Positions 203-33,815 of a DNA stretch of 37,635 nucleotides are shown here, in pieces. Position 1 is the stretch's first letter. Each line of letters begins with the position of its first letter. Source of the DNA: Holosporales bacterium (GTDB taxonomy: Bacteria > Pseudomonadota > Alphaproteobacteria > UBA3830 > JAIRMZ01); the NCBI GenBank assembly GCA_031279495.1, contig JAITIJ010000032.1, forward strand, positions 1 through 37,635, written 5' to 3'. The position numbers and the translations under genes were made by a program. The notes below the pieces were generated by a model that was not told where the DNA came from, made no database searches, and saw nothing but the letters and a program-made list of their open reading frames with translations.

Positions 203-907
203 TTATAAACATTTTTTCTCATAAAGATGTAGGTCTGAAATCTGGTCTATTTCTCCCCAAGGATAAGGATTTGGCACGCATTTGATGGGTGTCGCCTCTG
301 AAATCTTCCTTAAAAAATCCGTCATAAAAAGCGTATCGTTCTCTATAGCAGGCAGCGTTCTCCAGAATTCTTTTTTAAAGAGCAGTAAGCCCATATATTG
401 ACCCTGAATCTCTTCAATGGAACTTGGTTTCTGTCCAATTTCCAATAATCTTCCTTCAACAGACATTCTAAAAGTTTCAGCATCCTGCAATGGGTCTGCA
501 AAACGCTGACGCCAAAGGTCAAGCCAATTAGGGTCGTACGCAAGCAAGACCAGTGTTTCAGTAGAAGACTCAATCAAATCGCGCACTAAGCGCGTAGTAT
601 AAAAGATATCGGCGTAGCTCACGATGCAATCATCTTCTTTCAACCAAGAAGCGGCGCAAAGCATAGAATAGACCATATTCGTTTCCGCCCATCGCGGATT
701 GTGGATACGGCAAGTACCGTAAGGTTCTAAGCATTGGGATTGGTACCCTGTGACAACGCAGATATCACGTATTCCAGCTTCTTTCAATGCGGTAAGCTGA
801 TGTTCAATGAGAGGCTTTCCGAGCACAGAAACCAAGCTTTTTGGTTGTTCCTCTGTTAAAGATCCCATACGAGATCCGCGTCCAGCAGCCAGGATCAATC
901 CGCGCAT
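203..907 (-). CDS. Nucleotidyltransferase (NTP_transferase fold); candidate CTP:phosphoglutamine cytidylyltransferase (Cj1416-like)
   Basis: 234-aa ORF. The N-terminal 'GLILAAGRGSRMG...QPKSL' is the nucleotide-binding signature of sugar/phospho-nucleotidyltransferases. It is the last gene of a packed minus-strand operon and overlaps the upstream gene by 13 nt. Confidence 0.75.
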   Translation of the reverse strand: MRGLILAAGRGSRMGSLTEEQPKSLVSVLGKPLIEHQLTALKEAGIRDICVVTGYQSQCLEPYGTCRIHNPRWAETNMVYSMLCAASWLKEDDCIVSYADIFYTTRLVRDLIESSTETLVLLAYDPNWLDLWRQRFADPLQDAETFRMSVEGRLLEIGQKPSSIEEIQGQYMGLLLFKKEFWRTLPAIENDTLFMTDFLRKISEATPIKCVPNPYPWGEIDQISDLHLYEKKCL

Positions 908-1668
908 ATATCTCCAAGAAGAGTAAAGTTTTCGAACTCCAAACCAGATCGATAGGCGACAAAGGAATTATTGCGTATCGAAGGGTTGTTATAAACAGGA
1001 GGGCATCGTGTTTTTAAATCAATGATAACGCCTCCAGATTCCGTCAGAATCAGGTGTCCTGCTGCAATATCCCATTCCTTAGACCCTTCGAAACGAGGGT
1101 AGATATCGGCTTCTCTTGTTGCCAATTTGCAGAATTTCAACGCAGAACTCATTTCTATAATTCGATCAATCGCGTTTAACGAAAGAAAACGCTGCGTCCG
1201 GGGAGAATGATGTAGGCGGCTAACAATGGCGCACAATCCGTTTTCTTGTGAGGCTTCCCTTGAAAGAGATGATCTCACACAAGTTACGCCCTCTCCTTTG
1301 GCGGCATAATATAGTGCGTCTAATATGGGCGCATAAATAGCCCCCACTATAGGCGTTCTGTCTTGTATAAGGGCGACATTAACACAGAAATCATCGTGGC
1401 CCTTAAGAAATCCCTTTGTCCCATCCAAAGGATCAACAAGCCAATATCGTGTGTAGTTCTTGCGCACCTCATAAGCTGGCTCCGCTTCTTCAGAAACAAC
1501 TGGAATAGCCTCAAGCTTTGGCAGTGTTTCTGAAAGATAGGCATGAGAAGCTTTGTCGGCTTCTGTTAAAGGGGAGAGATCTTCTTTCTGAACACTTGTC
1601 GTATCTCCCCAGTACGAGGCTATAATTTTCCCCGCTTCTTGGACGATTTCGACAAGTTCATTCTTCAT
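895..1668 (-). CDS. cysQ: 3'(2'),5'-bisphosphate nucleotidase, CysQ / inositol-monophosphatase family
   Basis: 257-aa ORF with the CysQ-type motifs 'YWLVDPLDGTKGF', 'SALKFCKLA...ADIYPRF' and 'WDIAAGH'. Its ATG overlaps the upstream stop as ATGA at 1665-1668. Confidence 0.8.
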   Translation of the reverse strand: MKNELVEIVQEAGKIIASYWGDTTSVQKEDLSPLTEADKASHAYLSETLPKLEAIPVVSEEAEPAYEVRKNYTRYWLVDPLDGTKGFLKGHDDFCVNVALIQDRTPIVGAIYAPILDALYYAAKGEGVTCVRSSLSREASQENGLCAIVSRLHHSPRTQRFLSLNAIDRIIEMSSALKFCKLATREADIYPRFEGSKEWDIAAGHLILTESGGVIIDLKTRCPPVYNNPSIRNNSFVAYRSGLEFENFTLLGDICAD

Positions 1669-2261
1669 GACAGAAAATGTCCCTTAAACAAAGCGATATC
1701 CTGTGCATCAACTGGAGAAGTTCTCTCAGGATGCCACATAATACCATGAATGGGTAGAGTCCTGTGCGCAATTTCCTCTATAGTATCGTCTTCTGCGCAT
1801 TCTTTAATCTCGAACATGGATGCAGTAGTGCGCAGTCCATAATCGTGGTAGCTGTTGACCGTTCTTCCAGAACTCAGGCGATGGTGTTGCCCTATGTGAT
1901 GAGGAACTTTTTCCAAAGGCCCATGGAAATAATGCTGTATCACTTGCATGCCGCGACAAACACCTAAAACGGGAAAAGAAGCAGATACAGCATACGCTAG
2001 AATTGCCCTTTCTGTCGCATCACGCTCTGGAGCTGTTCCTCCATGGTTTTGTAATGTATTTCCTCCACTAAAAACGACGCCCACCAAAGGTGCTGTTTTT
2101 ATCAGGATAAGAGCAATATCTGGATTGTTGGGAATAAGCACAGGAACAAGGGAGCACAAGGCCAAAAAAGAGTTCCATTGCTGGTCAAGAGCATCGCGAC
2201 GTTCTGTCGTGTTTTCGTATGCGTGCTCTTCTACCCGTGTTGTAATGCCGACGAGCTTCAC
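1665..2261 (-). CDS. Class I glutamine-amidotransferase-like hydrolase (peptidase C26 family); candidate gamma-glutamyl-CDP-amidate hydrolase (Cj1417-like)
   Basis: Catalytic 'GVCRGMQ' Cys motif and 'WHPE' His/Glu motif. I moved the start to GTG at 2261, which overlaps the upstream TGA (2258-2260) as GTGA and gives about 198 aa. The 261-aa track ORF would overlap the upstream gene by 193 nt. Confidence 0.75.
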   Translation of the reverse strand: MKLVGITTRVEEHAYENTTERRDALDQQWNSFLALCSLVPVLIPNNPDIALILIKTAPLVGVVFSGGNTLQNHGGTAPERDATERAILAYAVSASFPVLGVCRGMQVIQHYFHGPLEKVPHHIGQHHRLSSGRTVNSYHDYGLRTTASMFEIKECAEDDTIEEIAHRTLPIHGIMWHPERTSPVDAQDIALFKGHFLS

Positions 2262-4564
2262 CGTATTACTTCGACTTTTTGGTTGGCGCAATCTATATGA
2301 AGGATTTGTGCGTGCGCCCATTGCGTGTAGAGTTTTTCTCCTGCTCCGATAATTGCTGGTAAGCCTAATTCTCCTGCGCGGATTGCCATATGAGAATTCA
2401 CCCCGCCGTAAGTCGTCACAAATCCGGCAATACCGTGCGTAAAAATCCAATCGAATCCAGGATCTGCACTGGGGATAAAAAGAATTTTTCCATGTAATGC
2501 GTGCTCACGCGCTAAATCTTTAAGAATAGGCGCTGTAACAGATTTGCGGGTGATGAAATTGGGATGATCCTCTGACAAGGCAAAAGAGTAGAAATCTTCC
2601 GTCTTTGTAATGAGTGGAGGTAAGAGAATCTGCGATGCGATCGTGTACCGCTTTTTGCCTAACTCTATACTCTTTTGTATCGTTTGAAGTATATCCCAAG
2701 AAGAGGCGTACATTTCTAGAATGCTTTTTATGTCGACATAAGACAGTTCTTCTGCATCAAGGCCATGTTGCGCGCCGAACCCCTTGAAGAGGGATAATAC
2801 GTTGCTGAGCGTTTTGGTGAAGACGAATTTGGCATACTCGCGCCCCTCGATTGCTGCTTTCATGAAGGTGAAAATACCTACGACATTATGGTCTAGTTTA
2901 TGCTGTTCTAGCAGATGTTCTACTCGTTGCATCTGAGAAATGGACAATGTAAAGGGCATTTTTTCTGTAAAATGTTCGTTTCTGACTTTAGTCCAATCGA
3001 AATACAAGCTCGGCGCTTCGTCATAACGTGGGGAAAGGATATCATAGGTTCCTGGCCGTAAGTGCCCATATTTTTCAAGGAATACTCCTTGCGACTCTGT
3101 TGCCAGATCATGCGCCATTTGAGAGCTAACCGAATTGAGGCTATTAAGGAAATCCGAACGCTGGTCTTTTGAAAGAATGCCGATGGACACCATCGAATTT
3201 AGGATCTGTACCGCGATAAACCCTGCACGCGCGAGCCCCGCAAAAGGCAATGTGCCATACCTTCTGCAATCTTCTACCATCCAATAGATTTTTGTTAAAA
3301 AATCGAAGTCTTTGTTGTGCAAAATGGTGTCGTGACGGTGTTTTAATTCTTCAATCTTTTGAGCATCCGTCACCCAAAGACCAGTATCATTTCTGATAAT
3401 CGTGTTTGTTAGTTCTCTGAGCGATTCCTGTAAATGCTGAAGATCTTGCTTGGAAAATCCAGCTATTTGCAGAGATTTAAGACGTTCCGGTGTATCAAAA
3501 GTGTAACAAGAATGCGCAATCTCGAATTCGATTTTATCGTGTAGATGAGGAGTTGTTTCCAATGTATCCAGATAATAATCTGCTAACCTATCAGAGAGAG
3601 ATTCGTCAAGCGTTTTCGGCAGAAAGGAGTTGAAGCTTACGCGCACATCGACATAAGGAAGACCGATAAAATCAACAAGAAGGGGAAAACTGCGCAGGTT
3701 CCTGTATCCATAATTATCGCGCTGATAAGCCCACGTACTGTCCGTAATCAGTGTTTTATATAGGCTGAGCGCTAAAGGCTTTGGGCGCACTCCAATGATT
3801 TCCGCCGGATTCCAATCTGGCATAACGCCAAAAAGTGCTCTTCTACCTTTTAGATATGGATGCGGCTTGTTGAGAATATCAAATCGCTTGGCAGCCATAT
3901 CAAGCCAAATCTGTTGATTGGTTATGGGAGAAAGCGTGCAGACTAGTGGTCGGACCTGGAACAAGAACAAATCTTCTTGCTGGTCGAAAGCAAATTCGAT
4001 GTCAAGATTTTGTGTGTCTAAGCGCTTTTCCAAAGTGTGCGCGAGGAGGAGAAGCTTTTTTAAACGTGTGTCTTGATGATGCGTGACACATCTGGCGATA
4101 AATACAGTATTTAGATGCGCTGTTGCTCCCGCTGTAACAGCAGTCGTATCTTGTGTCGTGGAAAAGTTGATGACGTAATACGGAGCCCCGCTATTAGGGT
4201 CTTTCGTGAACAAAACGCCACTCATAGCAACGTCTTGCAGCATCGGTTGCAACAAGACTTCATCTTTAGAAGAAAGAGCATCGCCGTAGGAAGCAAAAAC
4301 CGTCTCAATCGCTTTTCTTAGGCCGGAAAAAGGAACATTCAGCAGAGATGTGTACTTTCCGGCATTAGAAGTGTTTTCTTGATCTTCTGTTGTGGCACTG
4401 CTGCGCACAATAAAAAGAGGCCAGTTTTTCTGGCACGCTTCCTCTAAAAACACTCCTGGCGCTCGCTCCCACATTTCATGAGAGCAAACAAGCATTTCTA
4501 GAATCTTCGCTTCGCAAAGATCTGTAAGAAACTTAAGCGTCTGGGCTTTTGTACTGCACTGCAT
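2258..4564 (-). CDS. PEP-utilising / pyruvate-phosphate-dikinase-like phosphotransferase (N-terminal ATP-grasp PPDK_N domain plus C-terminal phosphohistidine swivel domain); candidate L-glutamine kinase (Cj1418-like)
   Basis: 768-aa ORF. The C-terminal 'GGVNSHMAIRAGELGLPAIIG' is the phosphohistidine mobile-domain signature. The N-terminal 'STKAQTLKFL...FIVRSSATTEDQ' resembles the PPDK_N nucleotide-binding domain. No PEP/pyruvate TIM-barrel domain is evident. Confidence 0.75.
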   Translation of the reverse strand: MQCSTKAQTLKFLTDLCEAKILEMLVCSHEMWERAPGVFLEEACQKNWPLFIVRSSATTEDQENTSNAGKYTSLLNVPFSGLRKAIETVFASYGDALSSKDEVLLQPMLQDVAMSGVLFTKDPNSGAPYYVINFSTTQDTTAVTAGATAHLNTVFIARCVTHHQDTRLKKLLLLAHTLEKRLDTQNLDIEFAFDQQEDLFLFQVRPLVCTLSPITNQQIWLDMAAKRFDILNKPHPYLKGRRALFGVMPDWNPAEIIGVRPKPLALSLYKTLITDSTWAYQRDNYGYRNLRSFPLLVDFIGLPYVDVRVSFNSFLPKTLDESLSDRLADYYLDTLETTPHLHDKIEFEIAHSCYTFDTPERLKSLQIAGFSKQDLQHLQESLRELTNTIIRNDTGLWVTDAQKIEELKHRHDTILHNKDFDFLTKIYWMVEDCRRYGTLPFAGLARAGFIAVQILNSMVSIGILSKDQRSDFLNSLNSVSSQMAHDLATESQGVFLEKYGHLRPGTYDILSPRYDEAPSLYFDWTKVRNEHFTEKMPFTLSISQMQRVEHLLEQHKLDHNVVGIFTFMKAAIEGREYAKFVFTKTLSNVLSLFKGFGAQHGLDAEELSYVDIKSILEMYASSWDILQTIQKSIELGKKRYTIASQILLPPLITKTEDFYSFALSEDHPNFITRKSVTAPILKDLAREHALHGKILFIPSADPGFDWIFTHGIAGFVTTYGGVNSHMAIRAGELGLPAIIGAGEKLYTQWAHAQILHIDCANQKVEVIR

Positions 4565-5840
4565 TGCTGATATCCAAAAATCTTAAGCGTTTGAGCTTGA
4601 TGTATTCTTTGAGAAGATCCGACAAATAATGAGGGCGTTGAATTAAACGTTTACCGAGTATGTCGTCCATTTCCGGAGTATCGGCATCAGGCTTGATCGA
4701 TCTTTTCCTTACAACAAGGTGCAGAACATATCGCAGACTTAGTCGTGCTACTCGCAAAACATCGACAAGACTTAATTTGGCCTCTTCTGGAAAGAACTTA
4801 ATCAAAACATCATGATAGAAAAGCCGGGCAACGGCTTCCTGATCTGCCGTAAGGATCCTCTCCCCTTTCTCGGTAAAGTTCTTATTTACAGAAGCCGTGT
4901 TTTTTCGCTTTCCAGAGAACCCTACCCAAGGATTTCCATAGAAAGTCGCTTGTTTTAGCGTAGGATCATACCGAACACCTAAAAAGGCACATACATGCGC
5001 CATAACAGCATCAAATTCCTTGTGTAATCCAGGCAGATAAAGAAGATAAATACTTTTTGGGATTTTCCACATATCATAAAGAGCGGATACCCTATGCGTC
5101 CGAACATCTTCTCTGTTGACGAGACTAGATTCGTAGGATTCACGCATGGAAGCGATCAATTGCGCATTTTTTACCGGGTCTTTTTGAAGAATGGCTAATT
5201 TTCTCTTTGATGCTCTTTCCGAACTGAGAGCCGATTCCAGAGTCTCTACAGGATTCCTCAGTAGAGTAATAAAGCTCGCCTTTGGAAAGTCTTGAAAGAA
5301 TTTTTTATGCTGTCTAAAGACGTCTTTTCGTGGCCCTTTCCGAGTAGTTGTCATGACGTGATGGCTATGAAGATGAAGAAGAATGAGCTTTAGATTCCTC
5401 AATGATCTATTGCATATTAGAAAAAAAGCGATATGGATCAGCAGAAAGTATTCTTTGCGTCCGCAATCACCATATAATTGACATAACTGGAAAAAGATTC
5501 TGCAGAACGCGCTCTTATCAATATTTCTCAGACTCTGTGGAGGATCTTCACAAGCAGCGGGCCTGAAAACCCCCCTCGCGAGATCGAACAATCCAGAAGA
5601 GTTCTTTTCAAAGAGTTCCAGGTATTCTTCTGGAGAAAATTTCTCTTCTTCGTTTGCGTAAAAATCATATACGTTTGTCTCTATAGGCAAGCTAGAAACT
5701 TCTTCGTGTTGATCAAAGAGTCCTTTGAAAAAAGTAGACCCCGCTCTTCCATAAGGCGTCATAACTGCGCACTGCACTCGAGAAAGAGCGTCAACTAACT
5801 CCTCACGCGTTAAATTTAGATCTTCAAGCATTCCAGACAT
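4533..5840 (-). CDS. Sulfotransferase-fold protein (binds a 3'-phosphonucleotide donor); acceptor and transferred group unknown
   Basis: 435-aa ORF. It has an N-terminal P-loop-like 5'-phosphosulfate-binding motif 'YGRAGSTFFKGLF' and a 3'-phosphate-binding type motif 'LLRNPVETLES'. It overlaps both operon neighbours. Confidence 0.6.
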   Translation of the reverse strand: MSGMLEDLNLTREELVDALSRVQCAVMTPYGRAGSTFFKGLFDQHEEVSSLPIETNVYDFYANEEEKFSPEEYLELFEKNSSGLFDLARGVFRPAACEDPPQSLRNIDKSAFCRIFFQLCQLYGDCGRKEYFLLIHIAFFLICNRSLRNLKLILLHLHSHHVMTTTRKGPRKDVFRQHKKFFQDFPKASFITLLRNPVETLESALSSERASKRKLAILQKDPVKNAQLIASMRESYESSLVNREDVRTHRVSALYDMWKIPKSIYLLYLPGLHKEFDAVMAHVCAFLGVRYDPTLKQATFYGNPWVGFSGKRKNTASVNKNFTEKGERILTADQEAVARLFYHDVLIKFFPEEAKLSLVDVLRVARLSLRYVLHLVVRKRSIKPDADTPEMDDILGKRLIQRPHYLSDLLKEYIKLKRLRFLDISNAVQYKSPDA

Positions 5841-6304
5841 TTCTCCGTTACCAAGCGCGCTTGTTGCTCCAAACTTGTCCTTTCATCAAAACAAAAATCC
5901 GAATACCACGGCTCTTCGTAAGAGTTATCCACCATATCCAGATTCCGCTTATACAGTCCCTTTGCATCGCGCAGTTCCCGCTCTTGCTGGCTAATACGCA
6001 AATAAACCTCGATGTACTGTTTGTTGTTATCGCGGTTCCACCGTCGAACTTCTTCAAACATCGAAATTGTAGCAACTATCACAAGAAACCCTTGCTCCGA
6101 TAGTAACCTTGCCAGCCTAGAGTAAACATGGGAAAGCTTCCTCCTCTCTTCATGGGAGACGCCGGACTCTTCCCCTAAAACAGCGCGCATTTCATCTCCG
6201 TCAAGGAGCAAAGGGTGCAGCCCGGTACTACAGAGCTGTTTGCTAACGGCGCGCGCTAATGTCGTTTTTCCTGCCCCTGAAAATCCGGTAATCCAGACAA
6301 CCAC
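5816..6304 (-). CDS. Adenylylsulfate (APS) kinase family protein; candidate cytidine diphosphoramidate 3'-kinase (Cj1415-like)
   Basis: 162-aa ORF. It has the Walker A motif 'ITGFSGAGKTTLA', plus 'LDGDEMR' and 'RDAKGLYK' motifs typical of CysC-type kinases. It is the first gene of the operon. Confidence 0.8.
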   Translation of the reverse strand: MVVWITGFSGAGKTTLARAVSKQLCSTGLHPLLLDGDEMRAVLGEESGVSHEERRKLSHVYSRLARLLSEQGFLVIVATISMFEEVRRWNRDNNKQYIEVYLRISQQERELRDAKGLYKRNLDMVDNSYEEPWYSDFCFDERTSLEQQARLVTEKCLECLKI

Positions 6305-6394: not shown

Positions 6395-6781
6395 CTAGCA
6401 AGAGGTCGTTAGTTGCCCCGGAAAGAGAATCTTAATAATACCTCCAAACGCGCACATCAATTGAGAATCATTGGTTAAGGCAGGAGAAGCTCCTACAAGA
6501 ACAACGGGATTTCCTACAATCCATGGCGGAATAAGGGCAAGAGTGCACGGCATTGGTGTCAGCACTCCAAAGGCCGCTGCGGTAGCGGCAGCCGTTGCGG
6601 GGTTCGCCAAACTTGTACATACCCCAAAAGGAGAAACATTCAAGAAAGGAACAGAGTCCATAATCGTTCCCATCGGCGGACCACCGCAAAAAGCACAAGA
6701 AGTGGGCAGAAAATTCAAAGGCGTTGGCACCATTCCCATTGAACATTTGCATAAAGCACCCTGAACGACAGGAAGACCCAT
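6395..6781 (-). CDS. DUF4280 (PAAR-like) domain protein
   Basis: Near-textbook DUF4280 pattern: 'VVQGALCKCSMG', 'PFGVCTSLANPATAAATAAAFGVLTPMPC', 'PPW', 'LMCAFGGIIKI..PGQ'. The start is set to ATG at 6781; the track uses TTG at 6787. Confidence 0.8.
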   Translation of the reverse strand: MGLPVVQGALCKCSMGMVPTPLNFLPTSCAFCGGPPMGTIMDSVPFLNVSPFGVCTSLANPATAAATAAAFGVLTPMPCTLALIPPWIVGNPVVLVGASPALTNDSQLMCAFGGIIKILFPGQLTTSC

Positions 6782-6783
6782 GT

Positions 6784-7503
6784 TCAACCATTGTCCTGTG
6801 GAGGACAGACGTTGCCCTTACGATCAAACTGTACACTGTTTTGAAGCTTTCCAGCGTTGAAATAGGCGACTTCCTTGATGCCTCCATCATCGTAGTATTG
6901 GCGTCTCTCTCCCTCCAAAAGATCCGCATGATAGAGAGCTTCTTCCAGCGGCTGACAATTGGGATAGTATGTGACGCTCGAGCCTTCTAATTTACCAGCA
7001 ACATAGGAAGAAGTGCGAACAATAGTCCCACCGTCTCTGAAGAAAGTAAACATTCCTTCAAGTTTTCCGGATACATAAAACGCCTCAGCAGCCACCTCTC
7101 CAGTGGGATTGAAATATGTTGCTTTCCCCTCTTGCAAGCCGTCAACATAAAGCACCTCTAACGTCTTACAGCCATCTTTATAAAAAGTGGCGAGTCCATT
7201 AAGGGTATTGTTTGCGTAAGTTAGGGTTTGTGTAACGTTACCATCTTCAGCATAAATAAAAGCGCTGCCAGAAAGTACCCCACCAACAAACATCAGTTTC
7301 TGTGCGCATCCTCCAGATGAAAAAAACACCTCAGTTGGTCCATCCAGACATCCCTCTCTGTAAGTCATTTTTTGAAGGAGCGTTCCCTGCGTATCGCAGA
7401 TATCCACAACACCATTTAAAGAGGCCTGCTCTTGATCCGTATCTGCTTGCACAGAAGAGAGGTCAGCCATCGAAGAATCTCTCACAAATCTGTAAGAAAA
7501 CAA
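6784..7503 (-). CDS. MORN-variant repeat protein (YwqK-like repeat architecture)
   Basis: 239-aa ORF built from about 23-aa repeats of the form 'G.L.G....YY..G.......Y..GKL.G'. Its stop lies 2 nt before the DUF4280 start. Confidence 0.6.
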   Translation of the reverse strand: MFSYRFVRDSSMADLSSVQADTDQEQASLNGVVDICDTQGTLLQKMTYREGCLDGPTEVFFSSGGCAQKLMFVGGVLSGSAFIYAEDGNVTQTLTYANNTLNGLATFYKDGCKTLEVLYVDGLQEGKATYFNPTGEVAAEAFYVSGKLEGMFTFFRDGGTIVRTSSYVAGKLEGSSVTYYPNCQPLEEALYHADLLEGERRQYYDDGGIKEVAYFNAGKLQNSVQFDRKGNVCPPQDNG

Positions 7504-7761
7504 GAGATATTTTATTTAAATAAAACCAATGTAGCAATACCTGTTGCCGTGGTGCGACGAACAACAAAAATCTAGTTGTTTTTTATTGATTCTTTCGCAT
7601 CCCTCCTCTATCAAGGAATATGCCACGTAAGTGACGAGGGTGAAAAGGTAAAGGTGGGATTTTTTCAGAATTATCTCTGTTCAGAACCCTTGTAGGATCA
7701 TAGTGCGCGGAAGATGATAGGGTCTTTAGCGAAATCCGGAAAGGCGTTGAATATAAGGTAT

Positions 7762-8265
7762 ATGAAAAGACTCAGTAAACGAGAAAGGATATGTATGCGT
7801 AGTAACTTGTTTGTATCTGTGGCGCTATTTGCGTGTACGGCTATGTATGTCAATGTAGTATTAGGACAAGAGGATTCTGCAACTGCTACGGTCCCGACGG
7901 CAGAGGCAGCAGCAATTCCTGGGGCAGGTGCAGAGCCTCCAAGAGAGGTACCAGCAGCAGAGCCTACTGAGGTTCCTGAAAGCACAGCAGTAGGTTCTGC
8001 ATCTCCTACATCTGAAGAAAAGAACATGTTGGCGGCACCAGAACCAGAGAAGAAAGGTCGCCACAAGAGAAGGCGGCATAAAAAGCGGCATCGTCAGACA
8101 GATCCGGGGTCGCTGCCAACCCCAGAGACACTAGCAGTAGATCCTGCATCTGGAAAGGATCCATCGGCGACACCAGAACCCGAGAAGAAGGGTCGCCACA
8201 AGAGAAGGCGGCATCGTCACGAGGAATCCATCACACCGGCTGTGGAATCTCCTAGCCCAAATTAA
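7762..8265 (+). CDS. Secreted Pro/Glu/Ala-rich protein with two copies of a basic 'PEPEKKGRHKRRRH' motif
   Basis: The signal-peptide-like N-terminus is 'MKRLSKRERICMRSNLFVSVALFACTAMYVNVVLGQ'. The start could be ATG 7762 or ATG 7795, and both have AAGG-type RBS. A stem-loop follows at 8281-8314. Confidence 0.55.
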   Translation: MKRLSKRERICMRSNLFVSVALFACTAMYVNVVLGQEDSATATVPTAEAAAIPGAGAEPPREVPAAEPTEVPESTAVGSASPTSEEKNMLAAPEPEKKGRHKRRRHKKRHRQTDPGSLPTPETLAVDPASGKDPSATPEPEKKGRHKRRRHRHEESITPAVESPSPN

Positions 8266-13253: not shown

Positions 13254-14054
13254 TTAGAATGGGAAGAGAGCATCTAACAGCTGGGTGCCATAGCGTGGTT
13301 CTTGAACATTTGACATAGCACCTCTCCCTCCATAAGAAATACGCGCTTCTGCGATACGATTGCAGGGAATCGTGTTATCAGAATCGATGTCTTCGGGGCG
13401 AACAATACCGGCAATAACCAACTCTCGACATTCTCGATCGACTCCAAATTCTTGGCGTCCAAAAATAACTAGATTACCGTTTGGCAAGATCTGAATAACC
13501 GTTGCTGCAACATAGGTTGTTATTTTCTCATAGCGATTGATTTTCGCTGTTGCATTGTGCTGTGGCGTACTAGTGATATCTAAAAGCTCTTTGCCGCTTG
13601 CACCAACGGGCATCACTTTCTTAAGAAGAGTGTCTTTTCCCATAAAACCGCTTGCGTCAACTTTTTCAGAGTGGCTACGATTGAGTGTTGTGTTGTTCTG
13701 CAGATCTGCTTTGTCCTCGAGTTCTACCTTGACTGTAAGAATATCCCCAACTCGGCATGCACGCTGATCCTTAAAGAAAGACCGAGAACCCGCTATCCAT
13801 AAAGAATTCGGCATCTTTTTCGATGACGACGGTTGCGGCATAGGCATCGTTATTTTTTTGTAATCGGGGAGTGTTGCCGGATTACGAATCTTTGTCAATC
13901 GAGGTTTGTCTCCGATTATGGCCAGACGGTCTTGCACTCCCACACAAGCACTTAGGATAAAAAAAACATTCCCAAAAACAAATCTCCTTAGAGCTGTTTT
14001 GAATTTCCATGTATATTTTTTTTTAAATAGGAGTGATGTCGATAATTTTATCAT
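13254..14054 (-). CDS. flgH: Flagellar L-ring lipoprotein FlgH
   Basis: Lipobox 'ILSAC', plus 'SLW..GSRSFFKDQRA.RVGDILTV' and C-terminal 'ISYGG.G' FlgH motifs. Confidence 0.85.
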   Translation of the reverse strand: MIKLSTSLLFKKKYTWKFKTALRRFVFGNVFFILSACVGVQDRLAIIGDKPRLTKIRNPATLPDYKKITMPMPQPSSSKKMPNSLWIAGSRSFFKDQRACRVGDILTVKVELEDKADLQNNTTLNRSHSEKVDASGFMGKDTLLKKVMPVGASGKELLDITSTPQHNATAKINRYEKITTYVAATVIQILPNGNLVIFGRQEFGVDRECRELVIAGIVRPEDIDSDNTIPCNRIAEARISYGGRGAMSNVQEPRYGTQLLDALFPF

Positions 14055-14691
14055 TATACACTATGCCTTCTATGATCTTCCCCGATTGCGTGTTTACAAC
14101 GCGAATCGTATCGCCACAGCCTCCATCCTCAAGAGCTTTTCCGCGTATAGTTGCCTGTAAATTCTGCATTTGTACGCGCAAAACGACAGAAGCGTTCCGC
14201 CGAATGACAACAGGATTCCGAATATCCGCAAAACGAATTGGGACTGTAGCACGCATAGCAAGACGTGCTATTTTTCCTATGACTTCCTCCGGATTTCGGA
14301 TCACATCTTGCCTGATGTGGTTTTCGCGGACTTCTGTCCAGTCAAGGTCTTCCGTGAAAATAGTCTCTCCGGCATGCTTAGAAGCCACTAGAGTAGGAAC
14401 TCGCACAGTGCGGACAACTTGTGCATCAGCTGGGGATGCTGCTCTTTCAACCCATACGGAGCACATATTCTCACACGATAAGCGATACCGCTGTGCCAAT
14501 GTTTTTAAAAAAGAAACGGGAATTTCTTGACGCTGTCCACAAGAAGGTGCTGGCATGACGGCAACATCTTGGGTTCCCTCTGGTAACTCAAAAAGATCGC
14601 TCAAATATACCTCTTCTTTGTGCACAATGATATCTGCATGTCCAGATACCTGGAGAAACAAGAACAACAAGGAAACGCAATATCTCGCCAT
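14023..14691 (-). CDS. flgA: Flagellar basal-body P-ring formation protein FlgA
   Basis: Signal peptide and SAF-like region, with C-terminal 'GDTIRVVNTQSGKIIEGIV'. It sits between flgG and flgH. Confidence 0.75.
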   Translation of the reverse strand: MARYCVSLLFLFLQVSGHADIIVHKEEVYLSDLFELPEGTQDVAVMPAPSCGQRQEIPVSFLKTLAQRYRLSCENMCSVWVERAASPADAQVVRTVRVPTLVASKHAGETIFTEDLDWTEVRENHIRQDVIRNPEEVIGKIARLAMRATVPIRFADIRNPVVIRRNASVVLRVQMQNLQATIRGKALEDGGCGDTIRVVNTQSGKIIEGIVYNDKIIDITPI

Positions 14692-14702
14692 TTACAATCT
14701 GC

Positions 14703-15488
14703 CTACATTTTCGGAATGAGTTCCATCATCTTGTCTGATGTTTCAACGACCTTTGAGTTGAACTCGTAAATCCGCTGCGCAGCAATAAGCTCCGTTAGCT
14801 CTTGAATGATGTTAACGTTAGAGGATTCCACAAAACCCTGTAGAACCGTACCCATGCCATTTGCGCCAGGATAAGCTGTAACTGGTGACCCAGAAGCGCT
14901 TGTTTCTGCATAAAGATTCTGCCCAATGGGCTTTAATCCGCCAGCGTTTGGAAATGTCGCGAGCTCAATCTGTCCTAGATTTTGCATAGCAGTCTGTCCA
15001 GGAAGTTTAGCAAAAATCTGACCATCGCCGTTGACTGTGATCTCTAAAGCGCCTTCAGGAATCGTGATATGAGGAGAAAGAGGATACCCCTCTGGCGTTG
15101 TTAGTACTCCATCAGGATTAACTTCTAAGGTGCCTGCACGTGTATAAGTAACGATGCCATCGGGTTGTTCTATCTGAAAAAAGCCGCGACCTTCGATAAC
15201 AATATCTAAAGGCCTGTCCGTTTTTGTTATCATGCCAGGTTCATGTGAACGGATAACAGATGCTAGTTTTACACCAAGCCCTTGGACACGTCCCGACAAG
15301 TCTAATGTATTATCTGATGTAGGCGCTCCCACAGCGCGCTGAACTTGATAAGTCAAATCTTGGAAAAGAGCCATAGCTTTTCGAAAACCAGGTGTATTGG
15401 CGTTAGCGATATTGTTTGCAATGATATCGACACGCTGTTGTTGTGCTGCCATGCCTGTTGATGCAATTGTTAACGACCTTGAAGACAC
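14703..15488 (-). CDS. flgG: Flagellar basal-body distal rod protein FlgG
   Basis: N-terminal 'ASTGMAAQQQRVDIIANNIANANTPGF' and C-terminal 'LQGFVESSNVN...ELIAAQRIYE' rod-protein motifs. 261 aa. Confidence 0.9.
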   Translation of the reverse strand: MSSRSLTIASTGMAAQQQRVDIIANNIANANTPGFRKAMALFQDLTYQVQRAVGAPTSDNTLDLSGRVQGLGVKLASVIRSHEPGMITKTDRPLDIVIEGRGFFQIEQPDGIVTYTRAGTLEVNPDGVLTTPEGYPLSPHITIPEGALEITVNGDGQIFAKLPGQTAMQNLGQIELATFPNAGGLKPIGQNLYAETSASGSPVTAYPGANGMGTVLQGFVESSNVNIIQELTELIAAQRIYEFNSKVVETSDKMMELIPKM

Positions 15489-15499
15489 GCGATCCTCCC

Positions 15500-16267
15500 T
15501 TAAGCAATCTTTACTAAACGGTCTATGGAATCATCTTGCCGCTCTTTATGGGAATTCATGGCGTACTGAATTTCTTGATAACGGCGCAAAATTTCTATCA
15601 TTTTTGTCATTTCATGAATGGGATTTATGTTGGCTTGTTCAAGCATACCTTGTAGAATTTCTGTGCTATCGCTGGTAGAGGGGTTCTCTTTAGCACTAAA
15701 TAAGTTATGTCCTTCTGGAACAAGATCTTGTTCGTCTTTGAAGGTATAAGCTTTGATCACCCCTATAACATGCTGATCTGCTGAAACTGTTCCGTCTCGC
15801 GTTATTTCTATAAGCTTGGTCCCTTCTGGAACAACGATAGGCATGCCATCTTCTGCAAGAAGAGGGTCTCCGGAAGCTGTAACGATCTCGGATTCAGCGT
15901 TAAGCTCGAATACGCCACAGCGCGTATAATAAGTTCCCCACTTTGTTTGTATAGGAAAAAATCCCGAGCCATGAATCATCAAATGCAGAGGATTGCCAGT
16001 GTTTTTTCCTGGCCCTTCTGAAAAATCACGAAGGACCCCGCGCTCGACAACATAAGACAGGTTGTGATCGACACCCGCTGCTTTGATATGGTTGCCGAAA
16101 CACAGCTTCTCTCCTTTGTATCCTGGTGTACCGGCATTGGCGAGGTTCTGGGCGACAACTTCCATTGAGCGCCGCAGTGCCTTTTGTTGAGAAAGAGCAA
16201 CAAGAGATCCGCTATCCATGTACTGCACACTTTCAAAATAGATTACTTCTCTAAATGCAGGTTCCAT
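15500..16267 (-). CDS. flgF: Flagellar basal-body proximal rod protein FlgF
   Basis: Rod-protein N-terminal motif 'VAQNLANAGTPGYK' and C-terminal motif 'LEQANINPIHEMTKMIE..R.Y'. An alternative start at ATG 16219 gives the more typical N-terminus 'MDSGSLVALSQQ'. Confidence 0.8.
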   Translation of the reverse strand: MEPAFREVIYFESVQYMDSGSLVALSQQKALRRSMEVVAQNLANAGTPGYKGEKLCFGNHIKAAGVDHNLSYVVERGVLRDFSEGPGKNTGNPLHLMIHGSGFFPIQTKWGTYYTRCGVFELNAESEIVTASGDPLLAEDGMPIVVPEGTKLIEITRDGTVSADQHVIGVIKAYTFKDEQDLVPEGHNLFSAKENPSTSDSTEILQGMLEQANINPIHEMTKMIEILRRYQEIQYAMNSHKERQDDSIDRLVKIA

Positions 16268-16426
16268 GCCATTTCATAATACATTGAAAAATAATGAATA
16301 TTTTAAGGATGCGAGCTTGTGCCAGGAAAAAATGTCTACGCCATCAACTAATTGTTAACTTGATCGATACTATTTTTCTCCTCTGAAACAGCAGTACCGG
16401 AAACTGAGTGTGGCAAGGAAAATCTT

Positions 16427-17383
16427 ATGTCTGGAATATCTAGAAGCTCTTCGAGGTCATCTGTCCAATCTCCGTCGTATACTACAAAAACTCAAGCATC
16501 TAGCGCAAAAATTGATGTTCTTAAGAAAACCAACAGCCCATCCAATCATCTTATCCTGGGGTTAGAAAGTGTATTCGATAAATTCTTAAGAAAAACGACT
16601 GTGAGTCTGCGAGATCTTGCTCAAGGTCATATTGACGCAAAAGAAGAACGCATTCACGACATGTCTTTTGGAAAGTACATTGAGACGCTGCCATCCCCCT
16701 CTCTTATGGCCATTTTTTATGTTGCAGAGTGGAATAGTTTCTCTGTTCTTCGTATGGACGAGCAATTGCTCGAGCCATTTGTGGACTCTCTTCTGGGAGG
16801 GAGTGTACATGAGCAGCGCAGCAAGAAATCTTGCGCAGTTACGCGGATAGAACGGGTACTTATTGAAAAAATTGTCAATGTTATGCTCTCTGATTTTTCG
16901 GCAACTTTCTCTGGGTTTACACCACTGCGCTGTACTTTAGAGCGCATAGAATTCATTCCAAATTTTGCAAAGATTTCTCACCCTGCGCGCGAGGCAATCG
17001 TCATGCAAGCACGCTTTTCTGTTGGAACCCAGAAAGGTACGGTCGAGTTCGCTATTCCCCATACGGCTTTTGCCAGTATTCAAAAAGATTTTCCAGCTCT
17101 ATCAGCAGAAAAGGACCTCGCGTTAGTATGGCGCAAACATCTTGAGACTGAGATATTGTCTGTTCCCTTAGAGATACATGCTGTCTTAAGAAATATGACC
17201 GTTCCTTTACAAGAAACACTTAAATGGAGAGTTGGTACGTACGTTCCTTTAGGAATGACGCCAAGTAGTCTCGTGAATATTTCTTGCGAAGAAAAAATAT
17301 TCTTTGCTGGTGTTCTTGGACGACAGGCACAGTGTGTCGCAATTCAAATTCAGAAAGTCTGTAAATGTGGAGAATTTTTATGA
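16427..17383 (+). CDS. fliM: Flagellar motor switch protein FliM
   Basis: 318 aa, divergent from flgF. FliM-like central region with 'LLEPFVDSLLGGS'. Confidence 0.6.
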   Translation: MSGISRSSSRSSVQSPSYTTKTQASSAKIDVLKKTNSPSNHLILGLESVFDKFLRKTTVSLRDLAQGHIDAKEERIHDMSFGKYIETLPSPSLMAIFYVAEWNSFSVLRMDEQLLEPFVDSLLGGSVHEQRSKKSCAVTRIERVLIEKIVNVMLSDFSATFSGFTPLRCTLERIEFIPNFAKISHPAREAIVMQARFSVGTQKGTVEFAIPHTAFASIQKDFPALSAEKDLALVWRKHLETEILSVPLEIHAVLRNMTVPLQETLKWRVGTYVPLGMTPSSLVNISCEEKIFFAGVLGRQAQCVAIQIQKVCKCGEFL

Positions 17384-25710: not shown

Positions 25711-27537
25711 ATGTGCGGTATCTGGTTCTCTGTTGGGTGGGGCAATCTGCCCTCTTCTGTTATTGATGTTGTGAAGCATCGCGGGCCAGACGGTCGAGGA
25801 TGGCAAGAGTTTTCGTCTGACCAAGGTCCGGTCATATTGGCGCACAGGCGGTTAGCGATTATTGATCTGAGCTCTTCTGGTTATCAGCCCATGTCGTCTT
25901 GTGATAAGCGGCTTTGGATTACCTTTAATGGCGAGGTTTATAACTACATCGAAATCCGGAAAGAGCTAGAAAATCTCGGATGTTCGTTTATTTCTCAGAC
26001 AGACACAGAGGTGGTTTTGCAAGCCTATGAGGTGTGGGGTCCAGCCTGTCTGCACCGTTTTAATGGCATGTTTGCTTTTGTAATTTGGAACGATCAAGAG
26101 AAAACAGCTTTTGTTGCGCGTGATCGTTTTGGCGTGAAACCTCTTTATGTGCACCAGGATGGCCAGAAGATTGCTTTTGCTTCGGAGATCAAGCAATTCT
26201 ACGAGATTCCTGGATTTCACGCTCACATTCATGCTGGAAATGCCCACGATTTTCTTGCACATGGTATGACTGATCACAATGAGGGAACCTTTATCGAGGA
26301 AGTGTTTCGTGTGCCTTTTGGTGGAGCGGGGGTGGTAGCCTCCGGAACGTTTGAGCCTTACATTTGGTACACGCTTCCTACACAAGAGATTAGCCGTCCT
26401 TTAGAAGAAGCTGCTGCTTTGTTTCGCGAGATTTTTCTGGATGCAGTACGCTTGCGCTTCCGCTCTGATGTGCGCGTTGGAGCGCTTTTGTCAGGAGGGC
26501 TTGATAGCTCGGCTATTGTTTGTGCTGCACGAGAGTTTTTCCCGCCTTTTGACACGTTTAGCGTATGCTATCCTGGCGAAAGTGTTGATGAGAGTGTTTA
26601 TATTGATGCTGTCATACAAGAGAAAAACACCATAGCGCATAAAATTTCGCCAGGGACAAATACGCTGCGGGATGAAATAGATAAACTGCTTTACCATCAA
26701 GAGGAACCTTTTGGCGGAACGAGTCTTTTGGCTGAGTGGAGCGTTTTTAAACTTGCTCATGAGCAAGGCGTTTCCGTAACGCTTGGTGGACAGGGACCAG
26801 ATGAACAATTGGCAGGTTATCATCCAATGTTTGGTGGATTTTACGGGGAGCTTATTCGTACAGGACGTTTCATACGCCTTATAAAAGAAGGATGCGCACG
26901 CGTACAAAAACATCGCGTCCCTCTACGTCGTCTTTTGGCGGACACGTTATCTATGTCTTTTCCGGAAATCCATTCTCGTGTTTTGTCGCTTTTGCATCCG
27001 CGCGGTCCATGTTCGTGGCTCAAATTAGATCCTCAGCAAAAAACCAGGTGGTTTACGGACTTTATTGCTGTTGACTCGCACAAAACCCTTTCAGACACTT
27101 GTCGGTGGTACATGAAGACAAATTTGCAAGCTCTTGTGAAACATGAAGATCGCGACAGTATGGCCTTTGGAATAGAATCTCGTTTGCCTTTTTTGGATTA
27201 CCGGCTTGTTGAGCTTATAGCTTCTTTACCAGCACATTATAGAATTCGCAACGGACAGACAAAGTACATTTTACGCGACGCTTTGCGCGGCATCCTCATC
27301 GAATCAGTTCGAACGCGTCAGAGCAAAATCGGATTCGCGACTCCAGAAGACAAATGGTTTACGAGAGATTTCCGTTCCGATTTGGATAAGGGAGTTGCTT
27401 CTTTTGCCGTAAATAACCGTAGAATCATTGATGAGAAAGAGTTAAAGTCAGCTTCCAGTGGCGATACGCACTTAGCCTGGCGTGTATATATTTTCGATAA
27501 ATGGATGCGTCAGTGGAAGGTAAAGTGGGCGCAGTGA
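25711..27537 (+). CDS. Asparagine synthetase (glutamine-hydrolysing) family amidotransferase, glycan-cluster type
   Basis: 608 aa. 'MCGI' N-terminal nucleophile Cys2, 'HRGPDG' and PP-loop 'LSGGLDSS'. It is the first gene of the glycan island. Confidence 0.85.
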   Translation: MCGIWFSVGWGNLPSSVIDVVKHRGPDGRGWQEFSSDQGPVILAHRRLAIIDLSSSGYQPMSSCDKRLWITFNGEVYNYIEIRKELENLGCSFISQTDTEVVLQAYEVWGPACLHRFNGMFAFVIWNDQEKTAFVARDRFGVKPLYVHQDGQKIAFASEIKQFYEIPGFHAHIHAGNAHDFLAHGMTDHNEGTFIEEVFRVPFGGAGVVASGTFEPYIWYTLPTQEISRPLEEAAALFREIFLDAVRLRFRSDVRVGALLSGGLDSSAIVCAAREFFPPFDTFSVCYPGESVDESVYIDAVIQEKNTIAHKISPGTNTLRDEIDKLLYHQEEPFGGTSLLAEWSVFKLAHEQGVSVTLGGQGPDEQLAGYHPMFGGFYGELIRTGRFIRLIKEGCARVQKHRVPLRRLLADTLSMSFPEIHSRVLSLLHPRGPCSWLKLDPQQKTRWFTDFIAVDSHKTLSDTCRWYMKTNLQALVKHEDRDSMAFGIESRLPFLDYRLVELIASLPAHYRIRNGQTKYILRDALRGILIESVRTRQSKIGFATPEDKWFTRDFRSDLDKGVASFAVNNRRIIDEKELKSASSGDTHLAWRVYIFDKWMRQWKVKWAQ

Positions 27538-27571
27538 ATCGCGTTGATTTTGAAAGTTATGAAAATCTCCA

Positions 27572-28174
27572 ATGATTGTTATCGTAGATTACGGAGTGGG
27601 AAACTTAGGATCTGTTGCGTCTATGCTCCGTCGCGCTGGAGGAGATCCTGTCGTAAGCTGTGATCCAGATGTGATTTCGCGGGCAGATAAATTGATTTTG
27701 CCTGGTGTGGGAGCATTTGATAGAGCTATGAATGGATTGGAAGAGCGCCATCTTCTTCCTGCTTTGCAAGAGGTCGTCGCGCGAGAAACACCGGTGCTAG
27801 GCATTTGCTTGGGGGCTCAAATCCTTGGAAGGAAAAGTGAGGAGGGTATATGCGCCGGCTTAGGGTGGCTAGATATGGAAGTGAAGAAGTTTTCTTCTAA
27901 GGATCTCCGTGTTCCTCACATGGGGTGGAACACGGTTACTCCAGCTAAAAATTCCTTGTTGTTTGACGCTATTTCTACCGAAGAGCAGCGTTTCTATTTC
28001 GTTCACTCTTACTACATGCAATGCCGTAATGAAGAGAATATTCTAGCTATCTCTTCTTATGGAAAAGACTTCGCTTGCGCCGTAAGTTGTGGCCATATCT
28101 ACGGAGTGCAATTTCATCCAGAAAAAAGTCATCGCTTCGGGATGAATTTATTTAAAAGATTTCTCGATGTTTAG
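27572..28174 (+). CDS. HisH-like glutamine amidotransferase subunit (WbuY type)
   Basis: 'IVIVDYGVGNLGSV', 'GICLGAQIL' and 'VQFHPEKS'. It is paired with a HisF-like gene and an N-acetyl sugar amidotransferase, not with his genes. Confidence 0.85.
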   Translation: MIVIVDYGVGNLGSVASMLRRAGGDPVVSCDPDVISRADKLILPGVGAFDRAMNGLEERHLLPALQEVVARETPVLGICLGAQILGRKSEEGICAGLGWLDMEVKKFSSKDLRVPHMGWNTVTPAKNSLLFDAISTEEQRFYFVHSYYMQCRNEENILAISSYGKDFACAVSCGHIYGVQFHPEKSHRFGMNLFKRFLDV

Positions 28175-28934
28175 AAGGATTATTCCTGTGCTTCTTCTTT
28201 CTGACGGTGGTCTTGTAAAATCAAAAAATTTCCAAGATTGTAGGTACGTTGGTGATGCACTTAATGCTGTACGTATTTTTAGCGAGAAAGAGGCTGATGA
28301 GCTAGTGTTTTTGGATATAGAGGCGACACGCCGTGGCGCATCTCCAGATATAGAAATGATCAAGGCTATTGCTTCAGAAGCTTACATGCCCTTTGCTTAC
28401 GGAGGGGGAGTGCGAACACTTCAACAAGCTGAAAATATTCTTCGAAATGGTGCAGAAAAGATTGTTTTGAATGATGCTATTTTTTCAATACCACATATTG
28501 TTGAAGAAATGACGAAGGAGTTTGGTTCTCAAGCTGTTGTTGCGTGTATCGACGTGAAGAGGATCATTTTTGGCAAATATGCGATTTTTTCTTATAAGGA
28601 TAGGACGCTACGTAAACCAGATCTTGTCACCTCTATTTCTCTATGCGAGAACCTTGGATGCGGAGAAATTATCGTGCAGAGCGTTGATCACGATGGCCAA
28701 AGGACCGGATATGACGTACCCTCCATTCAGCGCACACGAAAAGCGACCTCACTCCCACTTGTCGCTTTGGGGGGCGCTCGGAGCGTAGAGGATTTTCGTG
28801 CCGCCTTTCAAGCGGGAGCAGATGCAGTTGCGGCAGGATCTATGTTTATTTTCTGGGGAAAGTATCAAGCGGTTCTTATTAATTACCCAACCAGTCAAGA
28901 AATAAGGAGTATTCTACATGCAGATATGCACTAA
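28167..28934 (+). CDS. HisF-like cyclase subunit (WbuZ type)
   Basis: 'RIIPVLLL.DGGLVKS', 'ADELVFLDI' and 'GADAVAAGSMF'. It overlaps hisH-like by 8 nt. Confidence 0.85.
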   Translation: MFRRIIPVLLLSDGGLVKSKNFQDCRYVGDALNAVRIFSEKEADELVFLDIEATRRGASPDIEMIKAIASEAYMPFAYGGGVRTLQQAENILRNGAEKIVLNDAIFSIPHIVEEMTKEFGSQAVVACIDVKRIIFGKYAIFSYKDRTLRKPDLVTSISLCENLGCGEIIVQSVDHDGQRTGYDVPSIQRTRKATSLPLVALGGARSVEDFRAAFQAGADAVAAGSMFIFWGKYQAVLINYPTSQEIRSILHADMH

Positions 28935-30093: not shown

Positions 30094-30112
30094 ATGCGAG
30101 CGTGAAAAGCAA

Positions 30113-31548: not shown

Positions 31549-31736
31549 GAGATTTTGGGAGCTAAAATGCAAGAATGGTTGCCTATATGTGCGCGAATGA
31601 GAGAAGGCTAGAGCATATTGAAGGCTTTACCAAGCTCTGGAGAGGACTGTTGATAAGAAGCGAAGCAAAGTCATCTTGTCGCGTGATTATTAATGGAAGC
31701 CTTAAAAAAGGATAGCTCTATGGGGGGATAAGCGTC

Positions 31737-32417: not shown

Positions 32418-32440
32418 CCAGTGAAACGAGAAATGACCCC

Positions 32441-33433: not shown

Positions 33434-33678
33434 ACGGCTGAGAATGAAGTATCATCAACACAAAACCCAAACCTCACCTTTTCAAGAGGAGGACTACTAT
33501 CTTAGTGTACTACCCTTTAGGCCCCTCTTGCTATATCACGCTTACGTTGCAAACAGAATTATTTTCGTATTTTTGTGGGAGGTGGAGTATTTCTAACGGG
33601 AACAGGGGCGTATTGTCGCATATAGGCTTGTTAGTGGAAGCTTTCAATGGTCGGAATTCTGTTGTGCAACATTATACG

Positions 33679-33808: not shown

Positions 33809-33815
33809 TGACACT

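Follow-up and report, generated by a model that had tools for sequence, protein, structure and literature searches.

The operon and its host

The window analysed here, a whole stretch of 37,635 nucleotides (nt) from a Holosporales bacterium (contig JAITIJ010000032.1 of assembly GCA_031279495.1), carries on its minus strand, at positions 203-6304, six genes that form a real, intact and translationally coupled operon. The first gene (5816-6304, GTG start) specifies a 162-amino acid (aa) kinase of the adenosine 5'-phosphosulfate (APS) kinase family, predicted to be a cytidine diphosphoramidate 3'-kinase resembling Cj1415 of Campylobacter jejuni. It is followed by a gene (4533-5840) for a sulfotransferase-fold (ST) protein of 435 aa (432 aa from Met4, the start taken by the gene caller), a predicted phosphoramidate transferase, and by a gene (2258-4564) for a 768-aa homologue of L-glutamine kinase (GlnK, the Cj1418 family) that combines an ATP-grasp with a swivelling phospho-histidine domain. 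The remaining three genes encode a hydrolase of the class-I glutamine-amidotransferase type (GATase; 1665-2261, 198 aa, GTG start), predicted to cleave gamma-glutamyl-cytidine diphosphate (CDP)-amidate as a Cj1417-like enzyme; a homologue of the CysQ-family 3'(2'),5'-bisphosphate nucleotidases (895-1668, 257 aa), predicted to be a 3',5'-CDP (pCp) phosphatase; and a nucleotidyltransferase (203-907, 234 aa), the predicted Cj1416-like cytidine triphosphate (CTP):phosphoglutamine cytidylyltransferase.

Successive genes overlap by 25, 32, 4 (GTGA), 4 (ATGA) and 13 nt, and a Shine-Dalgarno-like GGGAGGG precedes the GTG codon of the kinase gene by about 9 nt. The preliminary description of this DNA had reported six co-directional minus-strand genes with overlapping junctions, which the list of open reading frames (ORFs) and direct reading of the ATGA and GTGA junctions bear out; its by-eye family assignments were all reproduced by Pfam and NCBIfam (APS_kinase; Sulfotransfer_3/1, weakly; PPDK_N and PEP-utilizers; Peptidase_C26/GATase; Inositol_P/CysQ; NTP_transf_3). 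The same gene set recurs on a contig of a Holosporales metagenome-assembled genome (MAG; locus L083), with 38-70% identity per protein, and thus the arrangement is conserved rather than a product of chance. A longer, TTG-started ORF for the GATase (to 2450) was rejected because it would overlap the GlnK gene by about 190 nt; it is also disfavoured by the alignment with Cj1417, which begins at residue 2-3 of the GTG-started form. A promoter and terminator scan was uninformative, with 11 promoter-like sites against 12.4 expected.

The window is chromosomal, containing flagellar genes, ruvABC, rpsD and a sugar-modification cluster. The best match to its RuvB, at 86% identity, comes from a Holosporales MAG, with the next at 71%, and the alphaproteobacterial background first guessed for this DNA was therefore correct. 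One relative of the ST protein is annotated as Holosporales, and a member of its subfamily, P0007, belongs to the very MAG that supplied the best RuvB match. Holosporales MAGs of this lineage include GCA_031258355.1 and the bin with MDR1266772.1.

Enzymes that would build the donor

The C. jejuni locus that makes O-methyl phosphoramidate (MeOPN) was recovered (L200) via an AT-biased back-translation of the most conserved GlnK motif, MPDWNPAEI, and its gene order is canonical: transferase, two methyltransferases, Cj1418, Cj1417, Cj1416, Cj1415. Four operon proteins align with their C. jejuni counterparts over essentially the full length, at 43% (Cj1418), 30% (Cj1417), 36% (Cj1416) and 34% (Cj1415) identity, and Cj1418, Cj1417 and Cj1415 each find their best match in the same NCBIfam models as the corresponding operon proteins. 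The early proposal that four families match Cj1415, Cj1416, Cj1417 and Cj1418 is upheld by these identities and common curated models.

GlnK scores 956.6 bits on NF004508/PRK05849 (cutoff 501), a model on which Cj1418 itself scores 1173, and about 62 bits on models of phosphoenolpyruvate (PEP) synthase; the 768-aa protein is thus of the Cj1418 type and not a PEP synthase, as had been proposed. Its identity to Cj1418 extends across 778 residues, and the motif GGVNSHMAIR, with a candidate phospho-carrier His at residue 725, is aligned with GGANSHMAIR of Cj1418. For the GATase the top NCBIfam model is NF045546 (GCDPHdlase, 'gamma-glutamyl-CDP-amidate hydrolase') at 126.6 bits, below its cutoff of 250, with the runner-up at 36.8; over the 203 aa aligned with Cj1417 the GVCRGMQ nucleophile and the WHPE His/Glu motifs of a Cys/His/Glu triad are kept. 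The position of the GATase gene is also syntenic, being that found in about 76 of the 80 genome loci (L001-L080) fetched with GlnK; these 76 or so keep the order kinase-GlnK-GATase-nucleotidyltransferase. The nucleotidyltransferase matches NTP_transf_3 (80.7 bits) and Cj1416 (252 aa aligned, E 1.9e-50), its G-rich loop motif LAAGRGSR is intact, and its nearest solved structure is 1jyk, a CTP:phosphocholine cytidylyltransferase. There is no specific NCBIfam model for either it or Cj1416, and the same generic model is best for both.

The kinase passes PRK05541 (139.1 bits, cutoff 127), which is also the best model for Cj1415, and falls under the cutoff of the apsK equivalog TIGR00455 (112.8 against 138.7), as does Cj1415. 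With an intact P-loop it has the motifs DGDE[ML]R, TISMF and NR, common to Cj1415 and 59 other cassette kinases, and it is without the DGDNVR, ENIRR and ISPH motifs of Escherichia coli CysC. Searches of PDB sequences with the four proteins returned no Campylobacter MeOPN enzymes, and only generic PEP synthases, GATases, APS kinases and nucleotidyltransferases. By analogy with Campylobacter, it is highly probable that the four enzymes would together build 3'-phospho-cytidine-5'-diphosphoramidate.

The sulfotransferase-fold protein and its links to the cassette

The ST protein scores 24.0 bits on Pfam Sulfotransfer_3, under the 27-bit gathering cutoff, and is also sub-threshold for Sulfotransfer_1; its relatives pass. 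A word-indexed search of 5.8 billion clusters yielded three relatives, and an exhaustive profile search of 1.84 billion representatives yielded 1028 clusters at E<=1e-3 and 13 at E<=1e-30, which places the protein in a small subfamily within a large superfamily. Members of the subfamily were seen only in metagenomes and Holosporales MAGs. An AlphaFold2 model built from a 123-sequence alignment has a pLDDT (predicted local distance difference test) of 90.7 and a pTM (predicted template modelling score) of 0.90, and the top 19 Foldseek matches to it in the PDB are all sulfotransferases dependent on 3'-phosphoadenosine 5'-phosphosulfate (PAPS), including the ST domains of CurM and OLS, TPST1/2, Stf1, Stf9 and NDST.

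Conserved across the superfamily are G31-R32-x-G34-S35, D43, H45, H158, R195-x-P197, H273, T299 and G302, and R195, H158, GRSGS and H273 are invariant or nearly so in more than 120 diverse members. The ST protein itself reads GRAGS at 31-35 and R195-N-P197...S203, and when it is aligned with the solved sulfotransferase 3rnl the R195 block falls on 'LRNPVDRAFS'. The conserved GRSGS, H158 and R195-x-P..S positions lie at the sites by which sulfotransferases hold the phosphates of PAPS. We take GRSGS to be the 5'-phosphosulfate-binding loop of sulfotransferases (PKxGTT / PRSGTT), and R195...S203 presumably corresponds to their 3'-phosphate-binding Arg/Ser motif. Because of these two motifs, the ST protein probably binds a nucleoside 3'-phosphate 5'-X donor.

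The protein is of a different family from the Campylobacter transferases, in agreement with the early remark that the module composition, with its sulfotransferase-fold gene, differs from that of the Campylobacter locus. In C. jejuni, the ORF that precedes the methyltransferase genes reaches 407 bits on NF058596 ('O-methyl phosphoramidate transferase', CJJ1420_fam) and 133 bits on DUF2972; the ST protein has no NCBIfam match at E<=0.01, and hence none to NF058596, and no DUF2972 match. HMMER found no similarity between the ST family and the C. jejuni transferase ORF, hhalign against that single sequence gave a probability of 1.3%, and a word-indexed search with a 44-sequence ST alignment returned 17 proteins, none named as Campylobacter.

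The association of ST genes with the donor cassette was gauged in the 80 genome loci by counting ST genes within 10 kb. An ST-superfamily gene was found in 22 of them by a local hidden Markov model (HMM) and in 32 (40%) by BLAST clustering; the same HMM gave no match in 80 control loci around RuvB genes (536 kb). Three loci (L035, L055 and L062) hold tandem ST paralogues. Close relatives of the ST protein lie directly after an APS-kinase-like gene (L081) or directly before the GlnK gene (L082, L084), and in L083 a relative closes the series GlnK-GATase-CysQ-nucleotidyltransferase. In the closest genome locus, that of an alphaproteobacterial MAG whose GlnK is 57% identical (L001, 3502-12765), the order is ST-like, kinase, methyltransferase, GlnK, GATase, CysQ and nucleotidyltransferase, and the cassette sits within a Wzm/Wzt ABC-transporter and GT2 glycan cluster. 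Two natural fusions were found, each within a phosphoramidate cassette: P0082 (L085, 10001-12535) joins a Cj1416-like nucleotidyltransferase to an ST domain and closes a complete kinase-methyltransferase-GlnK-GATase cassette, whereas P0144 (L086, 667-2640), which immediately follows a Cj1417-like gene, joins an ST domain to a CysQ-like one. The neighbourhood and the two fusions are the strongest arguments for placing the ST protein in the pathway and the CysQ-like enzyme on its product; in this respect gene statistics back the roles of transferase and by-product phosphatase that had been proposed for them, both of which stay predictions.

The CysQ-like protein scores 166 bits on Inositol_P and 215.3 on TIGR01331 (cutoff 228.8), shows 37.5% identity to E. 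coli CysQ and 42-54% to the closest CysQ-like proteins linked to cassettes, and has the metal-site motifs EE, DPLDGT and WD. Genes of this type stand in or beside cassettes in 7 of the 80 loci and in 9 of 120, some of them with a DUF2972-type transferase, so that the CysQ-like gene is a recurrent minority accessory that is not tied to ST. Its presence inside the operon is one of two truly unusual traits here.

The most unusual trait, overlooked in the preliminary description, is the absence of a methyltransferase of the Cj1419/1420 type. Such a gene, of Methyltransf_11 type, is present in 77 of the 80 genome loci, and tblastn with six cassette methyltransferases found none in the window or in L081-L083; the sole methyltransferase of the window, of TylF type (30787-31548), belongs to a separate cluster. 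The statement that no ATP sulfurylase (cysDN) is present in the window also held: tblastn with E. coli CysN and CysD found none there or in 206 cassette loci, a search aimed at the CysDN type, and the scanned window ORFs, which leave out a few such as 34916-35593, gave no sulfurylase-like Pfam match.

The donor cassette is far from rare, and the rarity implied at first was wrong. The four genes occur together in at least 584 species from Acidobacteriota, Alpha-, Beta- and Gammaproteobacteria, Planctomycetota, Gemmatimonadota and others, and further carriers that emerged from an AT-biased scan are Helicobacter, Pelagibacteraceae, Prochlorococcus, SAR86, Legionella, Shewanella, Woesearchaeota and Methanosarcinales. 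Cj1418-type kinase genes were noted among L167-L286 in highly diverse low-GC bacteria and archaea, including abundant marine plankton, and most have Cj1417- and Cj1416-like neighbours; these low-GC carriers include, besides C. jejuni (L200), Legionella tunisiensis (L188), Pelagibacter (L229), Prochlorococcus (L192), Woesearchaeota (L225) and Methanosarcinales (L179). Chitinilyticum litopenaei DSM 21440 and Legionella tunisiensis are cultured bacteria with the cassette, and Pelagibacter strains like that of L229 are candidates for culturable bacteria with the ST-type form.

Several side observations concern the neighbours of ST genes, of the cassette and of the operon. Two members of the ST subfamily lie on contigs with no cassette genes: P0008 (L289, 2409-3557) adjoins flagellar hook/rod genes, and P0007 (L288, 152-1306) adjoins a gene for a MurJ/MOP-family flippase. 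An unannotated family of about 365 aa without a Pfam match occurs in 26 of the 80 cassette loci (e.g. L074, 3299-4396, and L037, 6195-7292); several of its members, as long ORFs on the minus strand of GC-rich DNA, are possibly spurious, and the family was rejected as an ST relative, not being clearly related (probability 12%), nor is it clearly DUF2972. Within the window, a DUF4280 (PAAR-like) gene (6395-6787) and a MORN_2-repeat gene (6784-7503), both on the minus strand and mutually overlapping, lie 90 nt upstream of the operon. The 183-aa product of a plus-strand ORF (7714-8265) begins with a stretch like a signal peptide and contains twice the basic motif PEPEKKGRHKRRRH, a sequence similar to eukaryotic nuclear localisation signals; it matches no Pfam family and may be an effector secreted by a Holosporales-like intracellular symbiont. 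The flagellar genes flgH/A/G/F and fliM (13254-17383) lie near a sugar-modification cluster (25711-35593) with an AsnB-like amidotransferase, a HisH/HisF-like pair, a PP-loop amidotransferase, a PIG-L deacetylase, the TylF-type O-methyltransferase, two formyltransferase-like genes, a DegT aminotransferase and a GNAT gene. This cluster may build the glycan that receives the phosphoramidate. The cumulative GC skew reaches its minimum at about 24000, where gene orientation flips (yebC-ruvCAB leftward, rpsD rightward); DnaA-box-like 9-mers number 17 in the window against 8.0 in shuffles, with no cluster near 24 kb, and give no evidence of an origin.

Proposed phosphoramidate transfer and the competing readings

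The operon would constitute a self-contained phosphoramidate-transfer module, comprising donor synthesis, transfer by the ST protein and recycling by the CysQ-like enzyme, and the full scheme is given a probability of roughly 0.6. The nucleotidyltransferase would convert phosphoglutamine and CTP to CDP-L-glutamine, from which the Cj1417-like amidohydrolase would release glutamate to leave cytidine diphosphoramidate; the kinase would then add a 3'-phosphate to give 3'-phospho-cytidine-5'-diphosphoramidate (3'-phospho-CDP-amidate), an analogue of PAPS. The ST protein would use this compound as a sulfotransferase uses PAPS, with the GRAGS loop on the 5'-phosphate and R195/S203 on the 3'-phosphate, and would move the group -P(O)(O-)NH2 to an acceptor hydroxyl, most likely on a surface glycan. 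The by-product, cytidine 3',5'-bisphosphate, would be split by the CysQ-like phosphatase into cytidine monophosphate and inorganic phosphate. As no methylation is encoded locally and no Cj1419/1420-type methyltransferase is present, the transferred group may remain unmethylated. The donor-building steps are modelled on characterised Campylobacter enzymes; context suggests the transfer step, the donor specificity of the ST protein, its acceptor and the methylation state.

Two known systems bracket this scheme. The C. jejuni MeOPN locus (Cj1415-Cj1422), known from the work of Taylor and Raushel as cited in PMC11800397 and PMC6429109, has the same four donor families and the same GlnK-GATase-(x)-nucleotidyltransferase order. 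It differs in that its transferases are of the NF058596/DUF2972 family, whereas an ST-fold protein takes that place here; its Cj1419/Cj1420-type methyltransferases have no counterpart found here, a CysQ-like phosphatase is inserted, the kinase gene is first rather than last, the host is a Holosporales-like alphaproteobacterium, and the operon does not lie in a kps capsule locus. With PAPS sulfation by CysC, a sulfotransferase and CysQ, the operon shares the logic of an APS-kinase-family enzyme making a 3'-phosphonucleotide donor, an ST fold with PSB-loop-like (5'-phosphosulfate-binding) and 3'-PB-like (3'-phosphate-binding) motifs, and a CysQ-family phosphatase, but the CysDN search found no ATP sulfurylase and the kinase is of the Cj1415-type subfamily. 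Because the operon is translationally coupled to three CDP-amidate-building enzymes, the transferred group is predicted to be phosphoramidate and not sulfate. With the widespread kinase-methyltransferase-GlnK-GATase-nucleotidyltransferase cassettes of Acidobacteriota, Pseudomonadota, Planctomycetota, SAR11, archaea and others, of which a Borg example has been published (bioRxiv 10.1101/2024.11.05.622173), the operon has the four-gene core and its order in common, as well as the ST-superfamily gene (40% of those loci) and the CysQ-like gene (about 9%); unlike nearly all of them it has no Methyltransf_11 gene that could be found, and its ST protein belongs to a small subfamily.

A number of observations weigh against the proposed scheme. 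The functions of all six proteins are predicted ones. The ST protein lies below its Pfam gathering score, and its TM-scores in Foldseek, modest at no more than 0.53 (target-normalised), show its fold to be divergent; its features do not tell a cytidine from an adenosine donor. Those Campylobacter transferases that are proven genetically are of another family, NF058596/DUF2972. When the ST family was set against a 16-sequence DUF2972 profile, hhalign gave a probability of 18.6% and E 1.3e-3 with the RDP and C-terminal blocks collinear, and homology of the two families is thus suggestive but unproven. No ST gene lies inside 10 kb in 48 of the 80 cassette loci (60%), and among the scanned ORFs of the window no glycosyltransferase or polysaccharide-export gene adjoins the operon. 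The scores of the GATase (126.6 against 250) and the CysQ-like protein (215.3 against 228.8) are under curated NCBIfam cutoffs. The sequence search for a sulfurylase covered the CysDN type, in the window and the cassette loci and not in the rest of the genome. Finally, the claim that the kinase is closer to Cj1415 than to true CysC held, in that PRK05541 is passed and motifs are shared, but the margin is modest, an HMM of cassette kinases giving the kinase 165.8 bits and E. coli CysC 146.9, a difference of 19 bits. In pairwise comparison the kinase scores 98 bits with Cj1415 and 79 bits with CysC, at about 34% identity to both, and its assignment therefore rests largely on context.

The nearness of the kinase to CysC, together with the sulfotransferase fold and the CysQ-family neighbour, lends some colour to the main rival account, genuine sulfation, in which the kinase would turn APS, provided by a sulfurylase whose gene lies elsewhere, into PAPS, the ST protein would sulfate a glycan, CysQ would remove adenosine 3',5'-bisphosphate, and the GlnK, GATase and nucleotidyltransferase trio would serve a separate purpose; the evidence covers the window and not the rest of the genome, where such a sulfurylase might lie. 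The account is nevertheless disfavoured, because CysD and CysN were found neither in the window nor in the 206 cassette loci, because the kinase is constant in cassettes even without ST, including that of C. jejuni in which it is a CDP-amidate kinase, and because in P0082 the ST domain is fused to a Cj1416-like nucleotidyltransferase. The kinase, moreover, passes the Cj1415-type model and not the apsK equivalog, is without the CysC motifs ENIRR and DGDN, and is encoded in an operon whose six genes are all translationally coupled. Sulfation is accordingly held to be improbable. Lower still, if by little, stands the view that the ST protein is not a transferase at all, being for instance a regulator that binds or hydrolyses the 3'-phosphonucleotide, while an unrecognised enzyme elsewhere performs the transfer. 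The catalytic residues of ST are inferred ones, and the 60% of loci without an ST gene and the unannotated family in 26 of the 80 could be read in this way; near-invariance of R195, H158, GRSGS and H273 argues, however, for a catalytic site, the fusions are with pathway enzymes, and the tandem paralogues of L035, L055 and L062 mirror the paired transferases Cj1421/Cj1422 with their different acceptors.

A further alternative accepts the donor as proposed and questions the acceptor, which might be a protein (e.g. flagellin or its glycan), a lipid or a small metabolite rather than a polysaccharide. Such an acceptor would fit with the lack of a glycosyltransferase or export gene beside the operon in the window, with the flagellar genes and sugar-modification cluster 7-30 kb away, with the position of P0008 next to hook/rod genes, and with solved relatives of the ST protein that include protein (TPST) and polyketide (CurM) sulfotransferases. 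Yet nearness to flagellar genes may be coincidence, the closest locus, L001, lies in a glycan cluster with Wzm/Wzt and GT2 genes, and the sole characterised system modifies capsule sugars (PMC11800397). A non-polysaccharide acceptor is therefore regarded as unlikely, though it is a more serious contender than the other two, and a surface glycan is preferred as the target of the phosphoramidate transfer.

Published accounts treat MeOPN as unique to Campylobacter or as known only from there (PMC6429109, PMC9561416), and in the searchable literature a Borg element is the only mention found outside that genus (bioRxiv 10.1101/2024.11.05.622173). No text in that literature, which excludes the primary Raushel papers, combines 'diphosphoramidate' with 'sulfotransferase'. 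The step from donor to sugar has been assigned by gene knockouts only (PMC11800397). The operon and its relatives offer for this uncharacterised step a compact and probably soluble candidate transferase of a well-understood fold, for which gene neighbours and fusions provide independent indications of a 3'-phosphonucleotide donor; the PAPS-like role of 3'-phospho-CDP-amidate and the chemistry of transfer thus become directly testable in vitro.

There is about an even chance that ST-fold enzymes make up a second and far more widespread class of phosphoramidate transferases, using 3'-phospho-CDP-amidate in the manner of PAPS. If this is true, surface glycans modified through P-N bonds, so far regarded as peculiar to Campylobacter, would turn out to be common among bacteria and to occur in some archaea, and the Holosporales-type operon would be a methyltransferase-free version that installs the free phosphoramidate and brings its own pCp phosphatase. 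The spread of the cassette suggests that phosphoramidate decoration is taxonomically widespread, reaching from soil Acidobacteriota to SAR11, Prochlorococcus, Helicobacter and archaea, and such wide occurrence would bear on phage-receptor biology, immune recognition and the inventory of natural P-N compounds. For the host itself, the operon predicts a specific surface modification in an uncultured lineage of intracellular symbionts.

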